A stretch of DNA of 55,495 bases, the filler included, from Sphacelaria rigidula (taxonomy: Eukaryota), in the NCBI GenBank assembly GCA_964200075.2. It is 6 parts of 6 records of this genome, joined end to end, with 100 filler letters (N's around TTAATTAATTAA, not from the genome) between each part and the next. Parts side by side here need not be neighbours in the genome. Positions count along the whole stretch, not along the records: positions 1 to 9,167 come from CAXNAA020009143.1; 5 more parts are not named here. One strand, written 5' to 3'. The translations under genes were made by a program, and so were the position numbers. A model generated the notes under the pieces. It did not search any database, was not told the origin of the DNA, and saw only the letters and a list, made by a program, of their open reading frames with translations. This document shows, in pieces, positions 799 to 55,495 of this stretch; within the stretch, counting starts at the first letter, position 1, and each line of letters opens with the position of its first letter.

Positions 799-1284
799 TT
801 CCTGGTGGCTTCTTGGGCGGCCCAGCCTGTAGATTGCGTTCAAAAGTAGTACGCTGCAGACAGTATCAAGTCTATTGTATTGTCTATGGCAATATAGAGT
901 TGCTTTCATACTGTGTGAAGTACCCGTGGTACCGATGTTGCATAGTTTCCAAGCTATGGTATGTCGTAATTGACAACAAATTCGATACTGTACACAGTAC
1001 ACCTTTCCCGTGTGTTATCTGCTGTGAAAGAGTGTGCTATTTTGTTTCTCTTTTTTTTTCCCCACAATATCTGCAAAATCATTTTGATGTCAGCGCATGT
1101 TGTTTCATGGCGACACATGCTGATTTTTGTTTTGCATTTCTCTCGAGAACCAACTTCCCACCCCATATAATATTACTGCTTCTCTTGAAGTGTCCGCAAG
1201 CTGTCGTCTCGGGTACTATGCCTCCCGTTTCTCTACCTTCGGAATAGCCTTGAACACTGCTGCTACCTCTAGATGTTTCAGGGG

Positions 1285-1355
1285 GGGGGGCGTACTCATT
1301 TGTTGCTTGCCTTAGTCATTTGACCATTGACCACGCATCCCTTTCGAGACGGAGC
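1285..1355 (-). mobile_element. Poly(C)-tailed retroposon, 5'-truncated copy
   Basis: G-run + CGTACTCATTTGTTGCTTGCCTTAG...GAGACGGAGC, flanked by the 14-bp direct repeat AGATGTTTCAGGGG (1271-1284, 1356-1369). Confidence 0.85.
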
Positions 1356-1424
1356 AGATGTTTCAGGGGTGGGACAAATAAAATCGTGATTCGTTCCTCA
1401 TTCAGCGATTGTCGTCGCTGTGGT

Positions 1425-3453: not shown

Positions 3454-4159
3454 GTCAAAGAGCCTGAAGCCAGCTACAAACAGCACCAGTACTGCAAGAG
3501 TCGTCCCCGCATGGTCGCATCACTCCGACAGCGCGCATTCTACAAGCAGCACGGTGCAGGACAGCACGGCACCGCACAGCACAGTATACAGCGGACAGCA
3601 GAGAACAGTGCGAGATGAATCAAGTGTACATGTTCTTTCACTTTCCATTCATACAGCATGAATCATGTGTACACGTTTTCTCATCTGCCAGCGGAACAGC
3701 ATGAATCAAGCGTACATGTTTTCCGTCCACCATTCGTGCGGGACGAATAAATGTGACATTTTCTACACCAGTGATTTGTACAAGAAATGAGCTTCGTATA
3801 CATTTTGCAGTCTTCATTCGTGACACTACTTGGAGTGTACACATTCCCAGTTCGTGAGTCGTGCGGTACGACCTTGATCGTACGATTTTACCGTCCGTGG
3901 TTCATACTGGATGACGCTGTGGCGCACGATTCGCACTCAACTTTCATGAGGATTCATCTCATATGTACTCCGACCCGTCGAACCCTTGAAGATTTCTCCT
4001 ATATACTCGTGTGTTCATCCGCTTCATCCACTATTTGGAAGAAGTAGGGTGCTGAGTAGCGGTGAAGATTGCTCGGTGCGTTCTTGAGCGAATTTTCGAT
4101 GTACCGGGACATAATCTCGTTTATTAAAATTAGTAGGCGAAGCTTGCAACAACAGACAT

Positions 4160-4725
4160 ACCTCCCACAGATGGGGGTGACTTGATGTGAAGTACGCGAT
4201 TATGGCTGAGCGTTCAAAATCGGCACCCAAGTAGGACTGAGGACCCTCAACAAAATTGGCGAAGGACTTGAGCATGGGATGCATCGTGTTTCACTGTACT
4301 GCACAAACACACTCACGCACTATCTTGTGTCGTAGTTGTCACTGTGTTGTGGTGTGCTTGCACCTTACAAGGACGGCTTGGCCTCCGCTGGGATTGCCTT
4401 CGCTGCGATATTGTCGTTGTGTTCGTCTCTGTAGAAACATAAGTTAGTCGGCACGCAGTGTTGTCTGCACACTGACTATTGAAAACTTCATGGTGCATTG
4501 GCTGTTTCCTCTTCCGTGAAACGATCAAGGCGCTGCCCTCTGCTGCGGCACTCTGTTTACTTTGTGCTATTCGTCGGGGCACTGTACTGTCTTGCGTTGG
4601 AAGATGTGAGTGTGGGCGTGACTGGCCGTGATACTTGACCGCACGCACACTAGGTTTTGGACTACTCTCCAAGCACTTTCAAGTCGAAAGGAGCAATCTA
4701 ATCGGTAGTTGCTATGTAAAACTAT
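4160..4725 (+). repeat. Unclassified interspersed repeat; other copies at ~25575-26025 and ~40262-40628
   Basis: Shared blocks ACCTCCCACAGATG, GAGCGTTCAAAATCGGCAC, TGTTTCAC..CAAACACACTCACGC, GTCGGCACGCAGTG and TTGACCGCACG.ACACTAGGTTTT on three separate contigs. Confidence 0.8.
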
Positions 4726-17886: not shown

Positions 17887-17976
17887 CATGCATGTATGTA
17901 TGTATTAATGTTTGTATGTGTGTGTACGTATGTATGTATTTATGTACAGTACGTACATACGTATTAATGTGTGCTG

Positions 17977-18010
<34 letters not shown>

Positions 18011-18433
18011 TGTATGTATGTATGTATGTATGTATGAATGCATGTTTGTATGTATAACAATGTTTTCGTGATATTGAGAGTAGAGCATACGATTGAGAGC
18101 GGAAAGCGGTCAATCAACTAGTAAATGAACCGTTTCAGTTCCGAAATGCCCTTCCACGAGGCCCGATATGCTTTCTGTAGTAGCTTGCTACCGAGGCCCT
18201 CGATATCCCCGAGTAGGATATCGGCGTGTAGCTGTAAGCACACGCTAGTGTTAGAGGCGAAGAAAAGCACACACGGAATGAAAATCTGGCTACGTCAAAG
18301 TGAATGACCAAAGCAACTCTCAGTCAGCGCTCTACTCTCAATCTCACGAAAACGTTGTTGTATGTATGTATGTATGAATGTATGTATGTATGTATGTATG
18401 TATGTATGTATGTATGTATGTATGTATGTATGT
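17887..18433. repeat. (TATG)n microsatellite; also at 13194-13232 and 12640-12672
   Basis: Direct inspection. Confidence 0.95.
18055..18360. mobile_element. TA-flanked MITE, 306 bp, inside (TATG)n
   Basis: TAACAATGTTTTCGTGATATTGAGAGTAGAGC ... GCTCTACTCTCAATCTCACGAAAACGTTGTTG TIRs, with TA on both sides. Confidence 0.85.
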
Positions 18434-21093
18434 NNNNNNNNNNNNNNNNNNNNNNNNNNNNNNNNNNNNNNNNNNNNTTAATTAATTAANNNNNNNNNNN
18501 NNNNNNNNNNNNNNNNNNNNNNNNNNNNNNNNNAGCTGCAGGCGCATAAGTGGCATCGTCTCACGGTTCCTGCTCAAGGGGGGGGGGGGGGGTATTTTGG
18601 GCCACTGCTTGCACGAAATTCCGAGGCAAATCGCCGCTGAAATCAGCAACGGTTGCTCGAACGGGCTTGTTATAGATACACGACGCTCATTCATATCGAT
18701 TGACACCGTTTTGAACCAACTGTAAGCGCATCGCGAGTGTTGCAGGTCATCTGACACACTTTATCAGCCTTTTTTCCCGTGCAATCAAACAACCCCCCCC
18801 CCCCTATCGTAGAATGGCTCATTCATCATAAAAAAGGCACCGCAGTACACCTCGGAACACCACAAACCACAGCACACCACGGACAGCACCGCACCATGAT
18901 ACAGTGCAGCCCCAAACATGTATATCGCTCTGCGTGCGGTCCTGTCACCGATAACCTCAACTTCGAGGACATAATGTCGGGGCAGCTTCGAGGAATCTTG
19001 GCGGGTAGTGGCGACGTGTCTTGAGGGGAAGTGAGTCGAACGTAATTGTGTGCAAACAACAAGCAAGCGAATAGACGCCCAAGCCAAATCCATGTGTCCC
19101 AAACTCTACATTTCGTGCTCGGTGGTCTGCTGGCGGCGTTTGCCCCCGGCCACGCCGCTGCCAGTGGCGCCTGGAACGCGTATGCAGCGGCGGTATCCTC
19201 TACTATTCATTGCTGTGTCACTTGGCCATCGGATGAGCGTGGTCCCCCTCTCTCCCCGGCTTTTTGTCAGTGATTTTGTGCTCTAGGTCGGCCGGGGTCG
19301 GCGGGGCTTTTACAACATTGAGGGGGTCGGAGAGGGGTACGAGCTGGGCCAGCCTAAAAACGGATTTAAGGTCTAAAAGCAATATCTCGTCGACACAGAT
19401 GAGTTGGGCCGTGATCCGCATATCGTATTGATTGTCTAATCAAGGGGAAGGTGCTGATCTGCTTGAAAGTTCGGGCTCACACTCTCTCGTTGATTAAACC
19501 CCATGTCTAGTAATTTCTATACCTGACGGAGATGGCGTCCGTACTAAGACCTATATGAAACCCCCGATCAATGCATTCAGCGGATGACGAGTTGTGGTGT
19601 GGACATTCTCTGGAGCAAGGGGAGACGACAGATACCCTCACCTTCACCTCATTCGTTATCTATCCCGAGATATGGCGCACATACGTTTCTATACTAAAAT
19701 CAATATATTACGAGCAGAGGCACTAGATGCTCTAAATCTAGGAATCGCGTCTCAGTTTTTGAGAGTCATTCCATAAAAATTCATGTGGTGAACCGCTAGT
19801 GCATCATAGAAAAAGATGAAAACAGTTTGTTACCCTTTTTCATTCTTTTTCTTTTTTTTTTCGTGTTTTTAGTGGAATTTTGAGGAGAAATGAACAGTGC
19901 TCCTAGGCCTCATCTCAATGTTTTAGCTCAATTTTTAAAATTATGATTTTAAAGTTAGAACACTTCGTATGACAGCCAATCCAGAATCTGACGGGACTCG
20001 AATTTGTGCCAAATCGGGGGGACCCAGATTCGCGAAACTCATATTCGTGTGTACTCCTGTATGGCTTGGCTTCACAGATTTTTGTTGAAATTGTTTGAAC
20101 ACGAACGTTCATTTTCTGGGCTGGTGTGGTTTCACAGTAGTGAAGCCGAAGAACAGGCAGGCAGGGAACCATTCTTCAAGAGCAGCGTCGTACCATGGTA
20201 CCCTAGGGTATAATGTTGTGAAGTACACCGCACAATCACAGTACGCCATAATGCCGTGTGATAATACAGGATGATAAACTCGGTATGGCGAGAACAGTGC
20301 ACAGTGTGCGACAAGAGTTCACAACTGCAGTGTCATTCATCACCCTGCAAGTGCCGCGACAGCAGAGTGTATGTAGGAGAGTACACTACCGTTCGTTATG
20401 ATGATACATACAGCAGACAGTGCAGCATAAAATTTTGCCATCACCGCAGGTACGGCGTCAACACTTCTTATCCGCTTGTCAAACCCCGTGCGGAGCTGCT
20501 CCAGCAGCCGGCGCTCGCAGGCACCGTCTGTGCAGTCACGAGACTGTCTGCTGCTGTTGTTACAAAAATACCAAACGCCTGTTGCCCCATCACTGTGATA
20601 CGTATGTCAGTTGCTACAGATTCGGGGGATCTCGATTTTCCACGGATCTGTGCTCAGATTCGTGTAAAACCGTTTTCAAATCGTGACAGACGAATCTGAG
20701 CTTCCCCCATTTGGGCCGAATTGGGGTCCATACAATGCGTATCCGGATCTGAGGTCCCCCGATCTGCGTACAGATCCGTTTTTTTCACTGACATACAGAG
20801 TGGTCTTAGCATGAAGAACCACAAAAGTGTGTCGAATAAAAAATAAAAACGGGCCTCCATTTTTTTCAACTTTTTTCATAGAGGTTAGAGCGTTCTCGTG
20901 AAGAAATGGTTTTTACCAGACTAAAACGCCCTCAACCAGAGAAAAAATGAATAAAAAAAACTGTTTCACTGATTTTTGTTAATTATGCCCTGGCGAGGGC
21001 CCACACAAAATTTCAATACACAAGAACCAAACGTGGGCCGGTGAGTGGCCTGTGAAATTCTGTTCCGAATTTCTACCGACACGGTTTTTGAAT

Positions 21094-22946: not shown

Positions 22947-23603
22947 ACAAGTTTTGAGTCCTTGAAAAAAGTATCTCTGTTTCTGAACAGAATATCTTGT
23001 AATCGCACGAAAAATTGAGAAACGTTTCACTGCACATCGTTGTGACATCCCTACGCAAATGCTGTTTTCTGGCAAAACCCTCACGGTATATACCCCCACG
23101 GTGTCTCTCCCAAACTCTCTCCCATAATACCGTGATATGAACCCAGGTTTGTTTCGCAACCCTCGTATCTACCCCCTATCCTACAAGGGGGTGCAGGGTA
23201 CTTTAAAGACCAATAATGAAGTCGGTGGACGTAACTAGATGATCTCCTGAACTGAAATCGGCCCCGGCATCAAGCGATCGTGGCCGGAATCAGAGCAGGT
23301 AAGTGCACTCTCTTCGCGAGATTGGTTTGACTTGATCGCGAGTCAGAAAAATCAAACTGGAATGGTGAACAAAAAATACAGTAAGGCGGATGACGTTCGG
23401 AGTTGCTTCGATACCACGCCGCACCACGTAGAAGCGGGGAAGTAAAGCTTATCTTCACCTAATGAGTCATAGATGGGCGTTTAATTACTTCTGCAGTCTG
23501 TGCGGCTTCTTGTGGGGGCCTTTATACGGTGGTCATAATAGGTTTTAACTACTAACCTGAAAAAATATACGAGGCTCATCAGGCGGGGGGCGGGCAGGCG
23601 GGC

Positions 23604-23696
23604 GGGGGAGGGAGCGTACTCATGTGCTGCTCGCCTTAGTCGTTTGGATATTGAACGCGCATCCCCTCCGAGATGGAGCACCGTTCCTACTCATGA
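23604..23696 (-). mobile_element. Poly(C)-tailed retroposon, old truncated copy
   Basis: G-rich run + GCGTACTCATGTGCTGCTCGCCTTAGTC...GGAGCACCGTTCCTACTCATGA. Confidence 0.75.
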
Positions 23697-24895
23697 CAGA
23701 GACATCTTCAATGTTTGGGAGCTCATCATGTTTCTTCCAAACATGAAACAAAGACCTTTTATATATTTTATTCCTTCCTGAGTCCCGGGGGCGGGCGGAA
23801 CTGAGAGACGTGCCATTTCCTACCTGGGCAACAAAATATGGCGCGAGTGAACGGTGCGGAAAAAAACGAGCGCTTGTGAAAAAAACTGCGACGAAAGAAG
23901 TTAGAGGTACAGGTTGGTTCCCCTACAGGAGGGTTAGACGTATCTTCGGCGATTCCCAACCAAAAGTCCGAGGGATGGGACCTGAAATCTTGAGGAGAGG
24001 TACGAACCGACACCATTGCTGACGCATCCTCTACTCCTTTACTGAGTTAGGTGAATGAACTTGGCTGAATGGCCGAAAACATCCGCCCTTATTTCCGGAA
24101 CTCAAAATTGATACTTCCCCCGTCCTATAAGTCTAGGAAGTTATGGGCGTTGAATCGAATGGGTATGCCAACGTTGCCGATCATCCCATAGTTGGGTTTG
24201 CGAGGAAGATGAAGCGCAAAGGATGTTGAAAAAGCAAAACATTCGTCATCAATACTAAAATGATGTCAAGATATGCCCATTTTGACCCTTTTTGATCCAT
24301 TTATACCCCATCCTTGACCGATTTGGGACGTTTTCACGTCGAGCACTAGCAATTACATGCTAACAACATGTTGGATGGAGCGTGCGTAGGTTAACATCAC
24401 GGACACGGACATGTTCAAAAACAATGGTAGTTTCGCGATTTTTTCACATTTTCTGGCCCATCTTTCCCGATTTTTCGTGTACCCGGGTCTCTCATGCTTT
24501 CCTGGGAGAACAGCGAAAAGTGGCCGTTTTCGGACCGCCCTACGTTTTTTCAACCACGTGGCTGCATGCGTCAAGCACCCACGTTGTAGAAAGAGTGTTG
24601 GTTTTAGCTGAGAAAACGCCAACGAAGGCAATAAATCGAAAATCAAATCGAACACGGTTAAGGGGCTGCACAAGCGTAACTCGTACCCTGCGCCAATGGT
24701 AACAATCATGGTAACTCAGTTGCTCAGTTAATGTGCTTCGGTTGTATCGTGTTTGTACCCCTATGCCGTCATTTCTTGAATTCAATCTCCAACATGGTGT
24801 GAAAATGTCTTCCAAGAGCATTGTTTCTGACATGAGCTGACACCACCTCCCTTCCTCCCCGTCCCTGCAGATATTTCGTTTTCTTCGCTTCACAC

Positions 24896-25029: not shown

Positions 25030-27799
25030 CTGAGAGCGTCAAAGTTGCGTGACAGCCAGAGAGAAATACAGGAACAGATACAAGTCATATTAGGTGGCTC
25101 ATATGGCTCCGGAAGCAGCGAGCACGACCAAACAGGCACAAGCTATGATGTACGGCTCATCGGGTAACAAATATAGTGTTCATAATCAGACGCGCATAGG
25201 CATCACACCCGTGACTGACGTCTCCAAGCTTGAGGAGCTCTCTCGCTCGCGATGCACTAGCCCGGTTCATGAGAGATGTCAATGGTACAGCGCACGAAAA
25301 GGGCTTGTCAGGCCTTCATGCTGCTCGGGGGTAACAGCAACACATTGTTGGCAACTGCCATGCTGCAGGGAGGCATGGCTTGTGATTTCGGGCCAACTGA
25401 ACATGTACCAGGATAGAACGTACCTCATTGATCTAGCGGGCGAAGCCCGCAACACAAGCCAGACCTTCCAAACACAGAGGCGGGTAACTCAAAGTAAATA
25501 AAAAATGGGCGATGATTGCGCAGCGTAACTCGGCACCCACCCACAATTGAAAGGTGGTCCATAATCAGAGGGCTAGAACATGGGAAATGTCCTGTTTCAC
25601 TGTACCGCAGCGAAAGTACACTTACGCCCTCTCTCATGTGTTGAAGCTGTCGCTGCATTGTCGTGTGCTTACGCATTGCGAAAACGGTTTGGATTGCCTT
25701 AGTTGCGATATTGCCGTTGTGTTGTCCCTGCGGAAACCAATGTTAGTTGGCACGCAGTGCTGACTGTACACTGTTGAAAACTCCATGATGTGTTGGCTGT
25801 TTCGTCTTCCGTTTTTAAACATACTAGGCGCTGCTCGCAACTGCGACACCCCGACTGGTGCTGTGCGCTGGAGCAGTGTACTGTGCTGTACTGCTGTAGT
25901 TTGTTGGAACATGTGAGTGCGGGCGTCAGTAGCCATGAGATTTGACCGCACGAACACTAGGTTTTAAGATTATCTCCGGGCAATTCCCAAGTAGAATGGA
26001 GCGACTCGATCGGTAGTTACCAATCAACTTCAGTCCCGCTGCAAATTCAGTCTGCCTGATTTCGTGCATTCAGACAGAGAACATCAAAGGTTGGGGGGAT
26101 CTTGTGTAAATCTTCATGGTGTCGAGAATACTTGATGGTGGACACATGTAACACATATTTCATAATATACAACATCAGCAGAATGGAACAAGTGGACGAG
26201 CGGAAAGGCGAGTTTGCCGTCGATGCAAGAAACAAGAACCAAAAAGCGAAATATTGTGCCGATAGTATCACGCCATCCAGCTTCGCGCAGGTGTACCCTT
26301 GCCGGTAGTATCTGGTACGTCGGGCTATTGGACCACGCATTTTCGTGTGCATGCGGAAAATATTTAAACAATGCACCGTCGACGGAAGGAGGAAAACACA
26401 ATAAAATACACACCCACAACCAACGCGTCCTCTTTCGTGTACCACACACGCACCCAAAGGCACCCTCACTTTAGAAAAAGAGATTTCCCTGCTGCTTCTT
26501 CCAGCTGTAGCTTTTTGGTCCGCACGTACTTGTTGGAGTAGGTGGCTTTGCCGCCGCTTTTCAGACGTACCGCATGCACCTTCCAGAGGACGCGTGATAC
26601 AGCAGTTGTTGTAGCATTAGACAAAACGAACGCATGGCGTCTTGTTGTGAAGATAGTCTATTTTGGCGTACCAACATCGTTTTACGAACTGTGTAAGGCT
26701 CCCCGTAGGTGAGGAGCAAGAAGCACGCGCTCCCGGGAGAAGCCGACATCCCATGGTTGACAAGGGAGGGGCGAACCACAGCGCTTCTCCAACGGGGTTT
26801 CAGCACATATATGCCTCCAATCGCGCAGACTTTCTCCCATGAATTAGTACTTTCGGAGAGACAAAATTAGTATGAAGGTGTTGGGGGCTTCAGGGCTCGC
26901 GGTTGCGCGCGTACGATAACTGGCGTGCACGAAAACAGCGAAACTTCTCAGGTTGTCTCAATCGCAGAATAGCGAGTGCGGCGCCATGACCCCTTGAAAG
27001 AAGTTTCCAGAAACCTCAGGGAAACCACCCCACCCTAATCCCGACACAGAGCACCACAGGGGCCACGAAAATGGCAATTCACATCTTCCCTGAACAGCTG
27101 CATATGAAAGGCCTCTAGATTGTTAAGGGTGAAATCGCATTATCCGTACATGGGAAGCGCAAGAGAGCCAGGTGTATATGGCGTGCAACTGTTTCGGGCC
27201 ATCTCTATCCCAATCGCGTTGTTCTCCAGAGTTGGCTCGACTACGTTCTGCGCCACCAACAAACGCAGAAACCACGACAACCATCTGGATACACCAAAAA
27301 AAAAAAAAGGACTTTGTAAAACCAAGTCTGTCCGCATGTCAGCCGCCGCCAATCGAATGCATCCAATTGATGCTCGCCGGTGCGCACGGTAGCTGCGCAG
27401 AGTCAACACACGTGCGCATGAACAAAAACAAAAGCAATGCGCCACCCACAGCCCACCGCTCCAAGCAAATACGCTCGACGCATGTGTGCAACCTGCACAC
27501 CATACGGAGCAAAGAGGAGCCATGACTGTACTAAAGCGCAAGAAACCACAGGGAGACGTTTATTGCCCCTTTGGAACAACGTCCTCATCTCGAAAAACGG
27601 GCGCGGGGGGGGGGGGGGGGGGGGGGGGTAATGGAGGTATGGGCACAAGGAAAAAAGGGGGGACCCCTTGTTGGGGTTATGTGGGCGATAGATTACCGCN
27701 NNNNNNNNNNNNNNNNNNNNNNNNNNNNNNNNNNNNNNNNNNNTTAATTAATTAANNNNNNNNNNNNNNNNNNNNNNNNNNNNNNNNNNNNNNNNNNNN

Positions 27800-27871
27800 A
27801 TTTAAACACTTCGTGGAACGATCATCCCCATTGTGCGGAGTTGAGGTTCTCCCACGCCGCACAACATGACC
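27800..27871 (-). mobile_element. Poly(C)-tailed retroposon, internal fragment at contig start
   Basis: Near-identical to 46493-46569; followed by a G-tract. Confidence 0.8.
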
Positions 27872-27979
27872 GAGGAAGGAGGGGGGGGGGGGTTCGAAGC
27901 GCGCCGAAAAAAGAGAAGCTGAGAAGAACGTTTCTTTCATGTTTGAGAGCACCGACCATCCCCGATGACAAGATGCTAT

Positions 27980-29180: not shown

Positions 29181-29318
29181 ACAAGAAAAAAAGCTCTCAT
29201 TGTTCCCTCCAAGACTCGAAAAAAACACCAAGCAACACGAAATAAAAAAATAGAAACATAGAAACATCAAGAAAACAGAGGAGAAATAAAATGCCCACGA
29301 GAGATGATCTGGGTGGGG

Positions 29319-29343
29319 GGGGCGTACTCATTTGTTGCTTGCC
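29319..29343 (-). mobile_element. Poly(C)-tailed retroposon, 25-bp extreme truncation
   Basis: GGGGCGTACTCATTTGTTGCTTGCC flanked by the 14-bp direct repeat TGATCTGGGTGGGG (29305-29318, 29344-29357). Confidence 0.85.
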
Positions 29344-29594
29344 TGATCTGGGTGGGGTGGAAAAAACAAACCCATCAGGTCTGCAAATAAAAGATACAGC
29401 ATAAACAGGGAAAGCAAGACGAAAGTGACTACAGTAGAATGGCTATCAAGCGAGGGTCAAATCAACAACCCCAGGTACCTTCATAGACAAATACTAAAGC
29501 TGTTCGGAAATACGACAGATCCTTACGATTTGGTGGTCCTTGATAAGCACTGAGGGAACTCCAGCGATGACACAGCACACAAATCCTCAGCATG

Positions 29595-32080
29595 GCGCAC
29601 ATTGGGCCAGGGTGCCATGTACATCCTAGCCCTCTCCTCTACGATTCGGTATCATTCGGAAACATCTTGGGCAACCTGCGTCCACGATGTCACATTTATT
29701 CCGAAGTCGGGGCAGTATTCCGTGACACTGTGTTGTGGGCGTCTTGCTGGTCCGCCTGCCTTCGCCTTCCCTCCGACCATTACTCCACGCATGACGATGT
29801 TGGGGGGGCGCTCGTCGTGCATGCGCACGGCGTGGCTGGCGTATAGGAGGATTCGCCTCATCACGGTGGCCTCGATTCACTCGCAGCCAGTTCTTCCGAG
29901 GACCTCGTGGTACGGCCGCATGTGGTAGTTGGGAGCGTTGCGGCTTGAGGTATACTTGTGAAGGCATCTCAGCAGGAGTCCCCGGTGGGCATCTCGTAGC
30001 GCGCCGAATTGGTGGTGCGCATTCGTTCAGGTCGCGCAGCGGTATAGGATGACCCCGATCACTTCTGCCTTCAGAAGACGAACCTTGGTGACCAGGGCGA
30101 TCTGCGGATATGCCCGCCCTGCTGTACTTGTAGAAGTGCGCCCAGGCCTGACCAATGCGGCTATGAATCTCGGAAGTGACACCACCAACACTAGTGATTT
30201 TGCCGCCAAGATAGACGAACTACTCAACTTGCTTTTATCTTTCGCCCGCCGCCTCCACGTCGACCACGTCCACCTTCGTGTTCGGGGAGCGCATGTGCAT
30301 GGTAACCGTCTTCTTTTCCACCTCGACGAGACCATGCCAGAGTGGTCGGCGTATAACATGCCCCCGAGCACCTTGCTGAGTTCATCCCTGGTCTTCCCGC
30401 CCCTTTTCAGCGATGCGGATAGAGTCCTTCGCCACCGCAGTATTGATCGAGAAGCGGTCGAACGCCACCGCTTGCACCGCCGCAAGGAAGATGCTGAACA
30501 AACCGGAGGAGAGCACACACCCTTGGCGGAGGCCCTGGTTAACGTCTAACCACTCAGATGTCTCTCCGCTGTCAAAGCGTGCACATGCCCACAAATCGTC
30601 GTGAAACTGGTGGATGATCGATATGATCGTGGCGGGAATGCTGTATCGTGCTAGCACCTTCCAGAGAAGAGAGCTGTCGACTGGGTCGTACGCCTGTTGG
30701 AGGTCGATGGAGCACATGCACATCGGAATATTCTGCTCTCTGGCCAATTCTGGAGTCTGCGCACCGCGTACATCATGTTGACTGTCGATAGGCCGGGTCG
30801 GAAGTCGCGTTGAGCTTCTGGGAGGATTTCTTTCCACTTGCAGTAGGCGCTGAGGCGGGTCGTAACTATGTCGTAACTATGTTGAGAACGACCTTGGCCG
30901 CGTGGGACCCAAGAGAAATACCGCGGTAGTTGCTGCATTCGTGCGGGTACTGTCTCTTGAAAAGCACCTTGATGAGGGTATATTTCCACTCTTGCGGCAC
31001 TACATCCTGATGCCACACTGTGAGGACGACATGATGGAGGCACTCAGGATGGCAGAGTCCTCGGTGAAGCCGAGCTTCAATACTTCGCCACAGATGATGT
31101 CATTCCCAACGGCCTTGCCGTTCACCAGCTCGCCCACTGCTTCCTTTCTTCTTCCATGGAGGGCTCTGCCGCGAGCGGTGCGTGCTCCGGTATCTGCTCG
31201 ATGGGATCGATGACAGAGTGGTCGAGCATAGGCGAGGTTGCGTTTTAAAGCGTTTCGAACCACTCCTTCCACCTTTATACGACAGCTTGCTTGTCCCGCA
31301 GCAAGTCGCCGGCCGTGCTCCTGATGTAAGTTGAGCCACATCCCTTCTTCCCTTCCAATTCCGAGGGCTTGATGTGTTAGTACAGCCCTGCTTGGTCCTT
31401 CTTGCAAGCAAACTCCGCTGTCCTGACGGTGAACTTGCGAATAGAGTTTTGCAGTTCAGCTCCTTGACCCGCTTGGACATCTTGTCTGTCACCCTCAGCG
31501 CCTTTTTCGGGCCAGTGTCTTCGGGTTTGGCGTGTAGTTTCTGTCATACACGTTCCCTCGTATTCCACGCCTCTCGGGGCAGATTCTGAGCCTGTGACGA
31601 CTCACTGAAACCTCTAGGTGGGGGATTCAGGCAGCGTGGGAGTGTATCCGCAATCGTCTGTCGCAGTGTGTTGGTGAAGGCCGATGCCATATTGTCGACG
31701 TCCAAGACTGCGGTGAAGTTGGTGGCATTCGGGAGGTTGGCGACAATCACCTACGAAACAATCGCTCTTCAACGTGAGTCGGATGTGAGGGTTTTCTGGT
31801 CGAAGCGCACTCCGTTGTCTCCACCACTCGGTTTCAGTCAGTGGTAGAGTGCGCTCCATCCGAGGAGACGGGAGACAGGTGGAGGCTAAGACTAGTCGAT
31901 TGTCCGTTTCGTCTTGGAGTGCACCGTGACGTTTCGGACGAGTCTCCTATCTTGCTGACGTACCAGAATGTAGTGATGTAGTCTAGGTGCCAGCCGTCCG
32001 GCCTCCGACCCCTCATGTGTGTGTGCGGCTGAGTTTCCCTCGGTAGTTAGCGTGCGAAAAATGTGTTGGTGATCGCCATT
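29595..32080 (-). mobile_element. Degenerate RTE-type LINE (APE C-terminus + reverse transcriptase + C-terminal region)
   Basis: MAITNTFF and WHLDYI (APE end); ILPEAQRDFRPGLST, IDLQQAYDPVD, QGLRQGCVLS and LYADH (RT domains); RRILLYASHAVRMHDERPP (RTE C-term). Many frameshifts and stops. Confidence 0.92.
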
Positions 32081-36754: not shown

Positions 36755-37912
36755 CTGCGCGTGCCCATGTGCAGACGTGTGACATATTTTCCCCTTCGAA
36801 CATAACACTCCGCTGGCTGAGATCGCCTTCAAACCGTCCGACAGACTTGTGCCAGCCTGATGAGGGAGATTTCGCCATGAGACACACGACGGGGGGGGGG
36901 GGGGGGGGGAAGTAAAGACAGAGGTACACATAAATTACACTAAGCCTCCCGTGACTTTTCCAGAANNNNNNNNNNNNNNNNNNNNNNNNNNNNNNNNNNN
37001 NNNNNNNNNTTAATTAATTAANNNNNNNNNNNNNNNNNNNNNNNNNNNNNNNNNNNNNNNNNNNNCTTTCCCGCCCGTTTTCCTTTCTATTAGTCGCGGT
37101 CTGTTCGGTTTTAAAGGACTGTTGAAGAAACAGGGGGGGGGGGGGGTTACCCCCCCCCCCTACCCCCCGACTATTGTGCTGAAGATGGAGGAGGGGTGGC
37201 CGGGGGGGGGGCAAGGGGAGGGGGCTGAGTTTGGTTCGAATCTATTCATACCATGTCACTTCGATATGCTTGCGTCGGAGGCAGTTATCAAATCGTCTAT
37301 GTGTCGGGAAGCGGTGACGGCGATAATTTTTCTAGTCCCTGAGAACGAACCCCCCCCTGTAGTTTTCAGATAATTCCGACCACGCGCACATTCGTCAGCC
37401 ACAGCGCACACCAACACTCTCTCACTAACAAGCATTTAAAATTTTGAGCCCGAAAAGCAAAAGTACGTACCCCTTCTCCCCCCCGTATTTTTCCTCAAAC
37501 TCTGCTGGACTCACTGCTCGCTGCACGTGTTGCATCCCATGCGACTGATGAAACAGCAATTGTCGAAACATGTCACCCGCCCCCGTTAGCTCTTGCAACA
37601 AGCAAATCAACTCGTACCCTCAAGGATACATTGATGATCATCGTTCCCTCACGTATCATTCACGTACCACGTTGCCCGGCCGCACCTTCAATGCCCCTAG
37701 CGAAGTATATGTTAGTGGTCGATACAAAGCATCAGTATCGAGATGAAGAGCCCGAAACACTATCTCTTCCCTTAGGGAGTTGATTCTTATCATACTTGAG
37801 TGGCCTGGGCAACTAAGGAAACCCGTCAGTCATTATTCGATGCCGACACACTTGACACCCCCCCCCTTCCATACCCCCCCCCTCCGGCCCACCCTCACCC
37901 TCTCTGAAAAAG

Positions 37913-41400: not shown

Positions 41401-43704
41401 AAAAGGTTTTGGAAACACCTACAGTTGATGTAAGAAGCATTTGCTGACGATCGGAGAGCCTGCGCACCCCTTATCCTCTGTAAAAAAAACATGGAAACCC
41501 CTGGATTGTAGCCGGTGAAACTGCTTGAAAATGATGCCAGAGTTGGAGGGATTGACGCCCAAAACGGATATAGCCCCTCGAAGATGGACTGGAGGACGTC
41601 TGACGTGACATTTTTACATTGCAGTGCGTTCGCTCCTTGCATGTATCCTCACCTACTGCAGGCTTCGTCGTTTTCCATGAGTGACTCCTCATCGTTGTTG
41701 TGGTGTGGATATTTCGTCAACGGGCCGATGAGGGCAACTCATGTACACGCAGAGACTTGATCAAGATGCAAATGAAACTACGAAACGAGAGGTTGAATGA
41801 CCCCACTCAGACAGTGTTGGACACGTCTCGTTTGGTTTTCGGCCGTCCGAAGCCGTTTTAGTTTCCTTGGTTACCGGTGTTTTCCGATATATTCCCGGTC
41901 CTCGGTGCCCACCATCTCACAAGTGCACGTTGCATTTCCGTACCCTCCGTGTACTCCCACACCGAGCGAGAACCTGTTACCCGTACACCCTCATTTCTCA
42001 GTGAGATGACTTGTACCTGTCTTTTGTGGGTGCTGCTTGAATCGGCATCTACTCGTCAATATTGACCCTCCCACCAGCTACCCACTCAGCTGTCGAGTGT
42101 TCAAGTGGCTCTTCAGCTTCCGGTGCACTATCGCTTGAGCATCCTCTCTCTCAGGGTCTAGATTTTGAACCATTGTCGGGGCGTGAGACGAAGAAGTGTC
42201 TCACCTCCGACCTTGGTTTGAAGTTCAGACTATCAAGGAAGAGTTGCTCGATTGACGTACTGCGGAAGCTGAAGAGCTCCGAGCATGCACTGAAAGTAAT
42301 CCAAACAAGCCCCAGAGGCACAGAGCGGACGTGAGAGTTTAGAGGTTGCGCGCGATAGGTGAGGGCACCCTGCACCGAATGGTTCTGCCCGCAGAATATT
42401 TACGCACACATGAAACCGCGAGCGTGTGCTTGCTCTGCACCCGTGACTTGACAAAAAAAAATCCGCAAATACTACACATAATACGTGCACGGGTTCGAGA
42501 GATCGGGCTGATGTGCAAAATAGTGATGATGCCGCTAGTTCTCACTGCACACGGAAAGACTGAACGTTTCTCGCGAGATTTGCCCGCTGTATCAATCAGA
42601 CGGTAAAATATGCCCTTGTGAACACGGAATTTTACTAATAATTGAGGACGGGTTTTTTCCTGGGGGTGAATCAGTCCTGGGAACTTTCGTAAACATCGAA
42701 ATATTTGGGGGGGGGAAAGGGAGGATTTGTAAAATCCCGTGTCAAAGAAGAAGGATTGTGACAAATAATAACGTTTTTTTCTTGTACAGGAACGAACGGA
42801 GAATAAAATTGTTCGTGTATATAAGACCGTTTCTTACGGTTGGCTTTTTTAAAGGAGCGTCCTCCCCACTTCTAGAACATGTGACACGAATTTTGGCCCC
42901 CGAACAGAAGATATCTCCCACCATACGTCTTGAACAGTTTGCATCACCCCACCGACCGGGGTTGAGCCCGCTTTTCCCGACTTCCTTGGCTCCGAGGTTT
43001 CGGCAAGGGCCTCTTAACAAAGCTACAGCCCGCAGCACAATGTCGGGCACACAATTTGTCGGTGTTTTCGGTGAAAATATGTGGTTTTCTCCTGTTGTCG
43101 CTTCTCGGCTCTTCAATCGATGCTTTCCCGGGGTACCTCCGTCGTTTCTGGAGAGACAGATAGAGAAGTGCTGGGCGATGCCATGACATGTTCGAAAGAA
43201 GAGAAGAGTCTGTTTTCCCGTCGTATCCGTTGATAAAGAAAAAGCCGCGAAACAAAAAGATGAAGGGCAATCTAACGGGAACGGTTAAAAAAATCCTGTT
43301 GAAAAAAAATGTGCTTTTGGCGCTTTTCCGTCCTTTTACGACCGAAAAGAGAGTTGGGCGGATGTTGACAGCTTGGAATGATTTGCTCTACTCGCTAAGG
43401 CCGTCCCAGGGCAACTTTGCGTTTCCCATTGGCCGCAGTTTCATTTTCAGTGACAAACGGTCAGGCGCCAATTTTTCACCTTCCATTTCGGTCACCACTC
43501 GGTACAAGCTGCAAAAGTGGTGGATGTTCGCCAGTAACATGCACACACATGTGGCTGCAGTGATTTTGTTCTCGATAAAATGGTCTTCCGCCATCGGCTG
43601 CTGGTGTCCTTTGGTGCACCCAGAATTGATTCCACAAGGTGCTTGAATTCCGGCTGCTCTTTATCATGTCCTTTGTTTCGACACACTTCCCTTGGAGGAC
43701 GGGA

Positions 43705-43782
43705 GGGGGGAGGGGGGGCTCATCTGTTTCTCGCCCTGGTCAAATGACCATTGATGACGCATCCCTTTCGAGACGGAGCACC
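43705..43782 (-). mobile_element. Poly(C)-tailed retroposon, old truncated intronic copy
   Basis: G-run + CTCATCTG...TGACCATTGATGACGCATCCCTTTCGAGACGGAGCACC. Confidence 0.75.
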
Positions 43783-46330: not shown

Positions 46331-46762
46331 AGTCGCATGAAGAGTGAGCTGCATCCTGCCAAGATTGTTCGGCCCGAAGCCAACTGGTTATCTTGCATTT
46401 GGATGACAGCCTACAATGAGTTGCCTCATTTTCTGGTATTGCCACTTCCAGGGACAGCCACCGGTTCAACACTGCTTCATGGGTGCCTCACCATTTAAAC
46501 ATTACGTATAGTAGTACGATCATCCCCATTGTGCTGAGTTGAGGTTCTCCCACGCCGCACAACATGATCTAGCTCGACTACCATCATGGTTACCGCAGAA
46601 AAAAACGCAAGCGCGCGAAAAAATCGGTAACCTGGTTGCCTAGCTTACGCAGCGAGTGGCGTGCTTTCAAGCGTCACCGCGAACCGACGCCAACCCCATC
46701 GGGGGTCCGCCCCGACAAAGCCGGGACGGAGCACGCCGGGCTCTCGCCGGACCAGGCTGTAT
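46331..46762 (-). mobile_element. Poly(C)-tailed retroposon, 5' two-thirds (probable true 5' end near 46762)
   Basis: 46331-46530 is the reverse complement of ~51430-51620; followed by a G-tract. Confidence 0.8.
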
Positions 46763-46897
46763 TGGGGAGGGGGGGGGGGGGCGGGGCCATTGGTTGGTTG
46801 CCGGAGTGTGTTTTCTATTCACCGAGCATCTCTCTTGAGACGGAGNNNNNNNNNNCGGGGAGGGGGCCCGCGGGGCTCTCGCCGGCCCGGGCGGTTT

Positions 46898-47069
46898 GGG
46901 GGGGGGGGGGGGGGGGGCGTACTCATTTGTTGCTTGCCTTAGTCATTTGACCATTGACCACGCATCCCTTTCGAGACGGAGCGGGGTTCACTCATGATCT
47001 TGCATGCCGTAGTTATAAGACCATTGACCTCGCATCCCTACAAAGCCCAGAAGGGGCACGCCGGGTTTC
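46898..47069 (-). mobile_element. Poly(C)-tailed retroposon, truncated copy with both 3' monomers
   Basis: G20 + CGTACTCATTTG...GAGACGGAGC..CTCATGATCTTGCATGCCGTAG...CCCTACAAAGCC. Confidence 0.85.
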
Positions 47070-51058: not shown

Positions 51059-51426
51059 GTCAGATTTTTTTCGCAAAAAATGAAGACCTGGTTTGTTCAG
51101 CTGAGTATATAGTTCATGCGTTGTTGTAAGCGCAACACGTATTTTCACACGTGTTTCGAGCGGCCAAGTCGAGCTATAGGGTGGATTCACGGATAAAAAA
51201 AGCCGCCGAGGGGGTTGGCTAACCTTTCGACTGCACAGCCTTATTTTTCAATAATCTTCACTGCAGGAGCATTAAGTGCAGGACCGCGGAGTCATATTTC
51301 TTGTTTTGATTCGGCATGATGATATAATAATAGACTAACCCCCGGTGATTTCAAGTGTTGACCGAGGTCTACAAAGCAACTCCCTCCTCGCCCCTCCCCC
51401 CCTATTCCCCATCCTTCTCCTGCCCC

Positions 51427-51760
51427 GCGCAAAGGGGATCGTACCATGTGATGTCTAAATGGAGAGCAACCTATGGAACAGTGTGTAACCTGTGGCTGTC
51501 TCTGGAAATGACGATACCACAAAATGAGGCAACTCGTTGCAGGCTGTCGTCCATTTGCAAGATAATCAGTACGCTTCAGGCCGACCACTCGTAATAGGAT
51601 GCGGCTCATCCTCCATGCGACTCACCGAACACATCACGGGTGCTTCGCGCCTGGTGATTGCGAGCCGGTCTGGCGGAAACCCGGCGTGCTCTGTCCCGGC
51701 TTTGTAGGGATGTGAGGTCACATGTCTTATCACTACGGCATGCAAGATCATGAGTATACC
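51427..51760 (+). mobile_element. Poly(C)-tailed retroposon variant ending at the inner monomer
   Basis: Ends ...GCATGCAAGATCATGAGTATACCCCCC. Degenerate 20-bp TSD CCCCATCCTTCTCCTGCCCC / CCCCGTCCCTCTCTTGCCCC (51407-51426, 51761-51780; 17/20). Confidence 0.82.
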
Positions 51761-51816
51761 CCCCGTCCCTCTCTTGCCCCTGACGGCGTGTGCTGGGTTT
51801 CGTTTGTATGCCAAAG

Positions 51817-55038: not shown

Positions 55039-55421
55039 TTCTCTCGCATGAAAATGATTTTATCTTGTGTAATAATGATACTGTGTGTGTACGTCAGGTC
55101 GTTACTTGTTTTTTCACTATTATAGGAATATCCAGATGAAGTGTAGATTGGTGTATCCATCGATCGATTGTCGCAGATTGAGTCATCTGTTGCGAATCCG
55201 GTCGTGTTCCCAATACAGGCACACTCTTGTATATACATATTTTCTTCACATGTTTTCTTCTATCTTCATGTACACAAGGGTTTCGGCGGCTTTCTCCGCG
55301 AGCTTCAGTGGACCGACAGCCAAAAGTAAGAGACATGATAAAATAAGGGAAAAAGGAGCGCTAAGACGGAAAATAGACGAGGAAGGGGATAGGAATTAAG
55401 ATATATCTGCATGGCCCAATG

Positions 55422-55495
55422 GGTGCTCCATCTCAAAAGGGATGCGTGGTCAATGGTCACACGACTAAGGCAAGCAACAAATGAGTACGCCCCCC
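55422..55495 (+). mobile_element. Poly(C)-tailed retroposon, truncated copy running into the contig end
   Basis: GGTGCTCCATCTCAAAAGGGATGCGTGGTCAATGG...CAAATGAGTACGCCCCCC. Confidence 0.85.

Follow-up and report, generated by a model that had tools for sequence, protein, structure and literature searches.

Several short repeats in the genome of Sphacelaria rigidula raise the question of how a retroposed sequence can come to end in a run of C instead of a run of A. The copies finish with ...AAATGAGTACG(C)n, and a sequence-only reading had chained them with longer pieces into one non-coding retroposon of ~650–680 nt that carries poly(C) in place of poly(A). The window examined here, meaning the whole 55,495-nt stretch drawn from assembly GCA_964200075.2, consists of six ~9.17-kb stretches with N/TTAATTAATTAA spacers between them and an extra 10-N gap at 46846–46855, and each copy within it was read in the C-ending orientation. 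We consider it likely that the pieces belong to two related brown-algal non-LTR families, an autonomous LINE and its partner, which were inserted by target-primed reverse transcription (TPRT) with GGGG priming.

The repeat itself is real. Every piece listed earlier was returned by self-BLAST, and together the pieces sit in five of the six stretches. The pattern AAATGAGTACGCCC, with at most one mismatch, occurs at four sites (1288–1301, 29320–29333 and 46915–46928 on the minus strand and 55479–55492 on the plus strand) and in none of 100 shuffles; exact ...AAATGAGTACG(C)n ends likewise number four in the window and zero in the shuffles. The LINE-type 3' ends and their flanks are as follows.

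1271–1284, minus strand: target-site duplication (TSD) on the tail side of c1, sense CCCCTGAAACATCT, an exact 14-nt repeat.
1285–1290, minus strand: six tail C of c1 that are absent from the empty site; the G run is 1281–1290, and four of its letters belong to the TSD.
1291–1355, minus strand: c1, the last 65 nt of the LINE, comprising 19 codons, the TGA stop and GTACG, 100% identical to L002 and L005.
1356–1369, minus strand: TSD on the 5' side of c1, a 14-nt repeat.
23604–23780, minus strand: c6, an older LINE 3' fragment of ~177 nt, 77% identical to L005, with 49 codons at 53–55% identity.
29305–29357, minus strand: c2, made up of a TSD (29305–29318), four extra C (29319–29322), the last 21 nt of the LINE (29323–29343) and a TSD (29344–29357).
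43702–43782, minus strand: c3, an older LINE 3' unit (83%) that begins at GGTGCTCC, its C tail interrupted.
46769–46845, minus strand: a diverged LINE-type 3' unit with C13, beside the 10-N gap, 74% identical to L005.
46898–46982, minus strand: c4, a C20 tail (46898–46917) and a 65-nt LINE 3' unit (46918–46982), 100% identical to c1.
55318–55495, plus strand: c5, a LINE copy with internal deletions, its tail cut by the end of the window.

The three TSDs described earlier, of 14, 14 and 20 bp, were all recovered, two of them exact and the third agreeing at 17 of 20 positions. That of c1 is AGATGTTTCAGGGG at 1271–1284 and 1356–1369 (exact, 14 bp), that of c2 is TGATCTGGGTGGGG at 29305–29318 and 29344–29357 (exact, 14 bp; CCCCACCCAGATCA in the C-ending orientation), and the third flanks a longer piece that is described below. 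Read in the orientation of the element, all three begin with exactly CCCC, preceded by A or T, at a background at which CCCC starts at 0.58% of window positions. The evidence on the target comes from these three TSDs, while none convincing was found for c3, c4, c6 or the unit at 46769. The upstream TSD copies, which give the empty sites, have 4 C and the filled sites have 10, 8 and 6, so that 6, 4 and 2 C arrived with the insert; this shows that the C run came with the element rather than from a microsatellite at the target. A fixed 3' end, TSDs of 14–20 bp and an insert-borne C run together bear out the earlier assignment to retroposons moving by a TPRT-like route.

The same observations bear on the explanation that the C run was the target's own, through insertion into C microsatellites, or an artefact of sequencing or assembly, for example two-colour poly-G. 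Long G/C homopolymers are indeed in excess in the window (nine of 12 or more, against three of A/T), but the upstream TSD copies have CCCC only where the 3' junctions have 10, 8 and 6 C, and the runs are internal, keep a constant side and strand, and recur in four independent public contigs, which leaves this explanation barely credible. The poly-G sequencing artefact was rejected outright, as the runs are internal, oriented, TSD-flanked and recurrent across independent assemblies.

What kind of element the C run terminates became apparent from public contigs. A 22-letter pattern run against metagenome contigs gave four loci, L001 to L004, three of which (L002, L003 and L004) carry the LINE family; L001 was dropped as unrelated, its match being limited to the 22 nt. 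From genome contigs, a scan recovered L005, which is 5.3 kb long and had been assigned to a bacterial MAG; this MAG contains no other copy of the LINE. Viral contigs gave no match to two DNA patterns or to the LINE protein. Public contigs that share the 3' end thus encode endonuclease and reverse transcriptase (RT) domains. Up to the C run, L002 aligns with L003 over 3638 nt at 79.5% identity and with L005 over 3774 nt at 95.5%. In the public contigs, reading frames of 1253, 1426 and 1382 codons stay open up to the TGA within AAATGAGTACG; the 3' terminus of the LINE reads …AAC AAA TGA GTACG followed by (C)n, which leaves a 3' UTR of 5 nt. Because the frames terminate at that TGA, the supposedly non-coding end consists of the last 21 codons, the stop and the 5-nt 3' UTR.

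The translated frames P0001 and P0002 contain PF00078 (RVT_1; E 1e-30 and 8e-33) and, N-terminal, PF03372 (Exo_endo_phos; E 7e-13 and 3e-11), whereas PF14529 scored 24.1 bits in P0001, under the cut-off of 27.4, and 29.2 in P0002, over it. A CCHC motif lies C-terminal of the RT in the translated LINE frames, and the nearest solved structures for the RT are human LINE-1 ORF2p and R2 (E 3e-22 to 4e-18). Among named proteins, gene models of Ectocarpus sp. CCAP 1310/34 come closest, with 42–71% identity, and relatives at E ≤ 1e-3 amount to 159 proteins among 8000 scored candidates. The element has the features by which apurinic-endonuclease (APE)-type non-LTR retrotransposons are recognized, namely an RT, an apurinic-like endonuclease, a fixed 3' end, TSDs of variable length, no long terminal repeats (LTRs) or terminal inverted repeats (TIRs), and 5' truncation, although the 5' ends of LINE copies cluster at 65–69 nt. 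The alternative of an LTR element or a DNA transposon, raised earlier as one that could overturn the whole assignment, was checked, and a fragment of either kind is ruled out by the APE+RT frame and by the lack of terminal repeats, no LTR or TIR having been found in L003 or L005. L002, L003 and L005 yield no TSD, because their contigs stop at or before the 5' end of the element. At the sense 5' end of L005 (5109–5259, plus strand) there are two to three 62-nt tandem repeats, which may represent monomers of a 5' UTR or satellite DNA of the flank.

The AAATGAGTACG(C)n pieces of the window are shown by these alignments to be the coding 3' end of a putatively autonomous APE+RT LINE of about 5 kb with a single ORF, intact frames of which are known from public contigs only. 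They correspond to its last 7–49 codons and the stop, and the statement that the repeat has no ORF does not hold for them. By tblastn, six window pieces (in c1, c3, c4, c5 and c6) fall on the last 15–49 residues of the LINE protein; c1 and c4 are 100% identical to L005 across 76–78 nt, and c6 retains a decayed, C-rich tail at about 23565–23611. The copy c5 joins positions 4388–4456, 4487–4525 and 4930–5003 of L003 in the sense direction and has two deletions, of about 30 and 404 nt. There is no full-length LINE within the 55-kb window, the 10 longest window frames gave no match in Pfam, and the LINE remnants there are dead, shortened 3' ends of 21 to ~177 nt. Elsewhere in the window, 30382–31018 on the minus strand is a decayed RT of a different LINE (PF00078, E 5e-10), 31–35% identical to P0001 and P0002.

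The longer pieces are of another kind.

27800–27871, minus strand: c7, an internal fragment of the partner, cut by the start of its stretch, 98% identical to 46516–46567.
46331–46762, minus strand: the 5' 432 nt of the partner (N1-like), cut by the start of its stretch, with no frame of more than 63 codons.
46983–47069, minus strand: the 3' 87 nt of the partner, ending ...CATGAGTGAA CCCC, immediately upstream of c4 and 87.5% identical to 51676–51762.
51407–51426, plus strand: TSD on the 5' side of a partner copy, CCCCATCCTTCTCCTGCCCC, 17 of 20 positions agreeing with 51761–51780.
51427–51760, plus strand: partner copy, 5'-truncated, 334 nt, ending ...CATGAGTATA and CC, with no frame of more than 65 codons.
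51761–51780, plus strand: TSD on the tail side of the partner copy, 17 of 20 positions agreeing with 51407–51426.

The pieces 46331–46762 and 51427–51760 overlap at 80% identity over about 175 nt, giving a joint length of ~570 nt (432 + 138), and no frame of more than 65 codons and no match to the LINE protein was found in the long partner pieces. The partner end, ...GGCATGCAAGATCATGAGT(A/G)(T/A)A(C)n, resembles the LINE end at 82% over 50 nt and 74.6% over 59 nt. Judged by these comparisons, the long pieces are a predicted non-autonomous, non-coding partner of ~570–600 nt with the 3' module of the LINE. A search of Rfam with E up to 1 returned only a chance-level lncRNA match (E 0.57), and the tRNA search was empty; the partner, whose true 5' end is uncertain, does not have the tRNA, 5S or 7SL head and Pol III promoter of a strict SINE. 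Its first ~50 nt (GGTCCGGCGAGAGCCCGGCGTGCTCCGTCCCGGCTTTGT..., in 46331–46762) recur at 85% just before the 3' module (51663–51709), and the start of the partner is thus a duplicate of the stretch lying ahead of its end.

That all pieces come from a single non-coding retroposon of ~650–680 nt, with an RNA bearing true poly(C) in place of poly(A), has the advantage that overlapping pieces do chain to that length, that the long ones have no ORF, and that the C runs and TSDs are as first described. The chain, however, crosses the composite at 46898–47069, in which a partner 3' end (46987–47069), CCCC, a 65-nt LINE unit and C20 follow one another; once the LINE unit is taken away, the partner totals ~570 nt. 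In addition, the AAATGAGTACG end is the stop region of an APE+RT frame of 1253–1426 codons. We therefore hold a single element to be very improbable and retain the reading of two families, LINE and partner.

Such a pair has a precedent. As described in the accessible text of PMC12477816, Ectocarpus transposable elements include seven RTE-X families with 16418 copies, among which RTEX-N1_Ec32, non-autonomous and ~600 bp long, is the most abundant single family of that genome (>6000 copies, 2.48 Mb); its 3' end is conserved with that of the autonomous RTEX-1 and RTEX-2, and these elements are very abundant and often 5' truncated, with very short non-autonomous forms among them. The same source has, as in the present case, an autonomous EN+RT LINE accompanied by a ~600-bp non-coding partner that is conserved only at the 3' end, and the ~570 nt found here, with 82% identity over 50 nt and 74.6% over 59 nt, agree with such a partner. 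Likened by descriptions and numbers rather than by sequence, our LINE and partner match RTEX-1/2 and RTEX-N1_Ec32 as their counterparts, so that, going by the parts of PMC12477816 available, the LINE/partner pair is already classified in Ectocarpus. What had appeared as a "non-coding poly(C) retroposon" becomes an ordinary LINE with its non-autonomous partner, already curated in Ectocarpus.

The earlier suggestion that the repeat may be "Sower" is plausible, by size figures, for the long non-coding pieces. In the accessible text of a 2011 review (PMC3145265), Sower is the most abundant repeat of the first Ectocarpus genome, at ~2.5 Mb or 1.2%, likewise non-coding and unclassified at the time. 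Since ~2.5 Mb and 2.48 Mb agree, Sower is probably RTEX-N1_Ec32, as judged from size and abundance figures only; a classification here would not be the first, the 2025 paper, in its accessible text, having grouped the non-autonomous element with RTE-X LINEs (PMC12477816). That text, which displays "terminal motifs" in its Fig. 1C, does not mention a (C)n tail, a CCCC target or tandem 65-nt units for the Ec32 RTEX elements (PMC12477816). No open paper linking a non-LTR element to a poly-C tail was found, the spelling "poly(C)" being unsearchable. Within the limits of these sources, the homopolymer C tail, the matching target and a sharp 65–69 nt class discussed below are possibly an unreported twist.

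As for the mechanism, we infer TPRT primed from a GGGG-3'OH to be the best reading. The bottom strand would be nicked just 3' of GGGG, because each TSD includes, at its start, the whole CCCC of the target. The four G would then base-pair with a C run located at the 3' end of the RNA or close to it, and prime the cDNA, the synthesis of which probably starts in the C run, because no copy but c4 (AAA) has an A after it, and a second nick 14–20 bp away would produce the TSD. The LINE protein presumably copies the partner in trans. GGGG-3'OH priming had been proposed from the outset and fits TSDs that start with CCCC; on that proposal, the RNA would end in poly(C). Most likely each copy inherits its C run from its parent, with slippage altering the length: a run of C is beyond what polyadenylation can produce, and it is common to two families. 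Transcripts possibly read through the run. Templated variation of this kind is found in the repeat tails of other 3'-end-specific LINEs.

The competing explanation of the tail, in which the C run is not inherited but is added post-transcriptionally by a C-adding nucleotidyl transferase or, untemplated, by the RT, faces the difficulty that two families with different 3' bodies both bear the run, and in other LINEs whose tails are not A, the tail is taken over from the template. Tail lengths that range from 2 to 20 or more would suit such an addition, and C-adding rNTases are known in some organisms, according to the available part of bioRxiv 10.1101/422972; on balance, we find it improbable and continue with an inherited run.

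Once formed, old C tails would be good targets for further insertion, which would lead to head-to-tail arrays. C runs of 12–20 are located 10–15 nt upstream of partner 5' ends at 27881–27892, 46769–46781 and 46898–46917, the first of them being a C12 run 11 nt upstream of the 5' end of c7, at a background of 3.6% for CCCC 10–20 nt upstream. Such positions are as expected if the TSD begins in an older tail. Tandem units separated by C only fit either insertion into long tails or end-to-end template jumping. For c4, where only CCCC stands between the partner end and the LINE unit, an arrangement that does not agree with a TSD of 14–20 bp, template jumping is the better fit.

Two known systems help to place this mechanism. 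In human L1 and Alu, as proposed here, a homopolymer tail pairs with a homopolymer of the target, TSDs start with the base of the tail, old tails draw insertions and a non-coding partner is copied in trans. The L1 analogue of the present arrangement is a TTTT/AA target with poly(A), in place of which we found tails that are C runs and targets that start with CCCC. The tail here is therefore C and not A, which polyadenylation does not explain, and the 3' UTR is 5 nt; in contrast to Alu, the partner has the 3' body of its LINE. In that respect it resembles stringent pairs of the UnaL2/UnaSINE1 type in eel, in which the LINE and the partner have a common 3' module and the tail is inherited and not poly(A); very short 3' UTRs are known from RTE elements. 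The differences from the stringent LINE/SINE pairs are that the tail unit is a single base, that the module lies inside the last ~21 codons, and that a conserved stem-loop is no more than a candidate here: folding predicts a pair of small hairpins within the last 65 nt, one of them with a GAAA loop, but their changes are one-sided only (0 of 15 pairs changed on both sides), and the 3' module folds no better than shuffles (z 0.15). The peptide G(C/R)VVNG, located 6–10 residues before the stop, is kept in relatives down to ~40% identity (proteins P0001–P0037), and the DNA matching it is the best-conserved stretch of the non-coding partner, which hints that this stretch may be conserved as nucleic acid. 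A C/G tail with microhomology to its target provides a natural test of how much the pairing of nick and tail weighs in TPRT.

The 5' side of the copies is less easily explained. A variable 5' truncation had been claimed, but the ends are not spread freely: four of the six LINE-type copies in the window (c1, c3, c4 and c5) break within 3–4 nt of one point, 65–68 nt from the tail, and the remaining two measure 21 and ~177 nt. In c5, the last joint is at this breakpoint, where the larger deletion ends exactly, and the similarity between partner and LINE begins near it as well.

Eleven public runs of the same organism, represented throughout by Logan contigs and including two rows tagged "algae metagenome", extend these observations; four of the eleven (X1, X3, X4 and X6, the "RNA?" label of X6 being a guess) were aligned to L005 at 85% likeness. 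Pieces aligned to L005 number 123775 in X1, 54091 in X3, 94040 in X4 and 4184 in X6, and 13528 of those in X1 are at least 99% alike to L005; summed depths and contig counts from such runs are not copy numbers. All 30 bins of L005 are covered in all four runs, one of them (3697–3872) being nearly empty, with 261 in X1, and no piece among those listed in the four runs spans the whole of L005. The summed depth in X1 is 9.79M in the 3'-most bin, which holds the last ~70 nt and the tail, 2.20M in the next, and 261 to 0.87M in the other 28, and an excess at the 3' end is evident in all four runs. Loose ends at the outer edge of the C/G run amount to 1499 in X1, 671 + 285 in X3, 1407 + 390 in X4 and 91 in X6, and their consensus continues with further homopolymer, followed by unlike flanks (agreement 0.35–0.43). 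The copies thus meet many different flanks at one fixed 3' junction, the C run, and their tails are often longer than the 12 of L005.

The best-supported 5' boundary lies at places 171–173, i.e., 65–67 nt from the tail, where 315 loose ends at place 173 in X3, and 51 at 173 with 28 at 171 in X6, pass into continuing homopolymer. In addition, joints that go back by 73–81 nt, from 171–175 to 95–101, occur in many contigs of all four runs, and the joint from 173 to 95 is found in 43 contigs of X1, 12 of X3 and 33 of X4. These joints are head-to-tail repeats of the unit with its C run, and neither the sharp 5' mode at 65–69 nt nor the arrays are predicted by simple truncation.

One way to account for both is to see the 65–69 nt unit not as a truncated LINE copy but as a minimal non-autonomous retroposon in its own right, or as the outcome of end-to-end template jumping, which multiplies independently and forms head-to-tail arrays. 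The sharp 5' mode, each of whose loose ends in X3 and X6 runs into homopolymer, the backward joints in four of four runs, the shared breakpoint of four of the six window copies, including the deletion joint of c5, and the onset of partner–LINE homology near the 65–69 nt point all speak for such a unit. However, the complete identity (100%) of c1 and c4 with the LINE gives no sign of a separate lineage, contig counts do not equal copy counts, and arrays would also arise by insertion into long old tails; we regard a self-multiplying unit as a real possibility, although rather less than probable. A wider reading would bring these elements together in a brown-algal LINE lineage in which an inherited C homopolymer replaces the A tail, priming is from GGGG-3'OH, the recognition module of the RT lies within the final ~21 codons, the old tails of the lineage itself are preferred targets, and the 65–69 nt terminal unit multiplies as a minimal retroposon in head-to-tail arrays, the genome filling with long G/C homopolymers in the process. 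We put this forward tentatively, as a reading that falls a little short of an even chance, and keep to the LINE and partner inserted by TPRT with GGGG priming as the more limited account.

A C-tailed LINE may account for many of the long G/C homopolymers in these genomes. In the window, most long G/C runs lie away from the LINE and its partner, at 27605–27628 (24), 36891–36909 (19), 18578–18592 (15) and 37133–37160 (G14 TTA C11). The window's remaining C/G runs of at least 7 letters have no common upstream sequence, and no TSD was found there outside the LINE/partner family; these other long homopolymers may be tails of other families. Apart from the homopolymers, a block of short tandem repeats at 17888–18433 gives many staggered self-matches at 80–98%. 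An inverted repeat joins 1547–1578 and 1777–1802 (96%, 27 nt, about 230 bp apart), its arms reading ACTTTCTACGATAGT(G) and then, inward, C13 and G8; it resembles a small MITE with homopolymers just within its termini, and TATCGTAGAA, which is related to it, adjoins C12 at 18793–18804.
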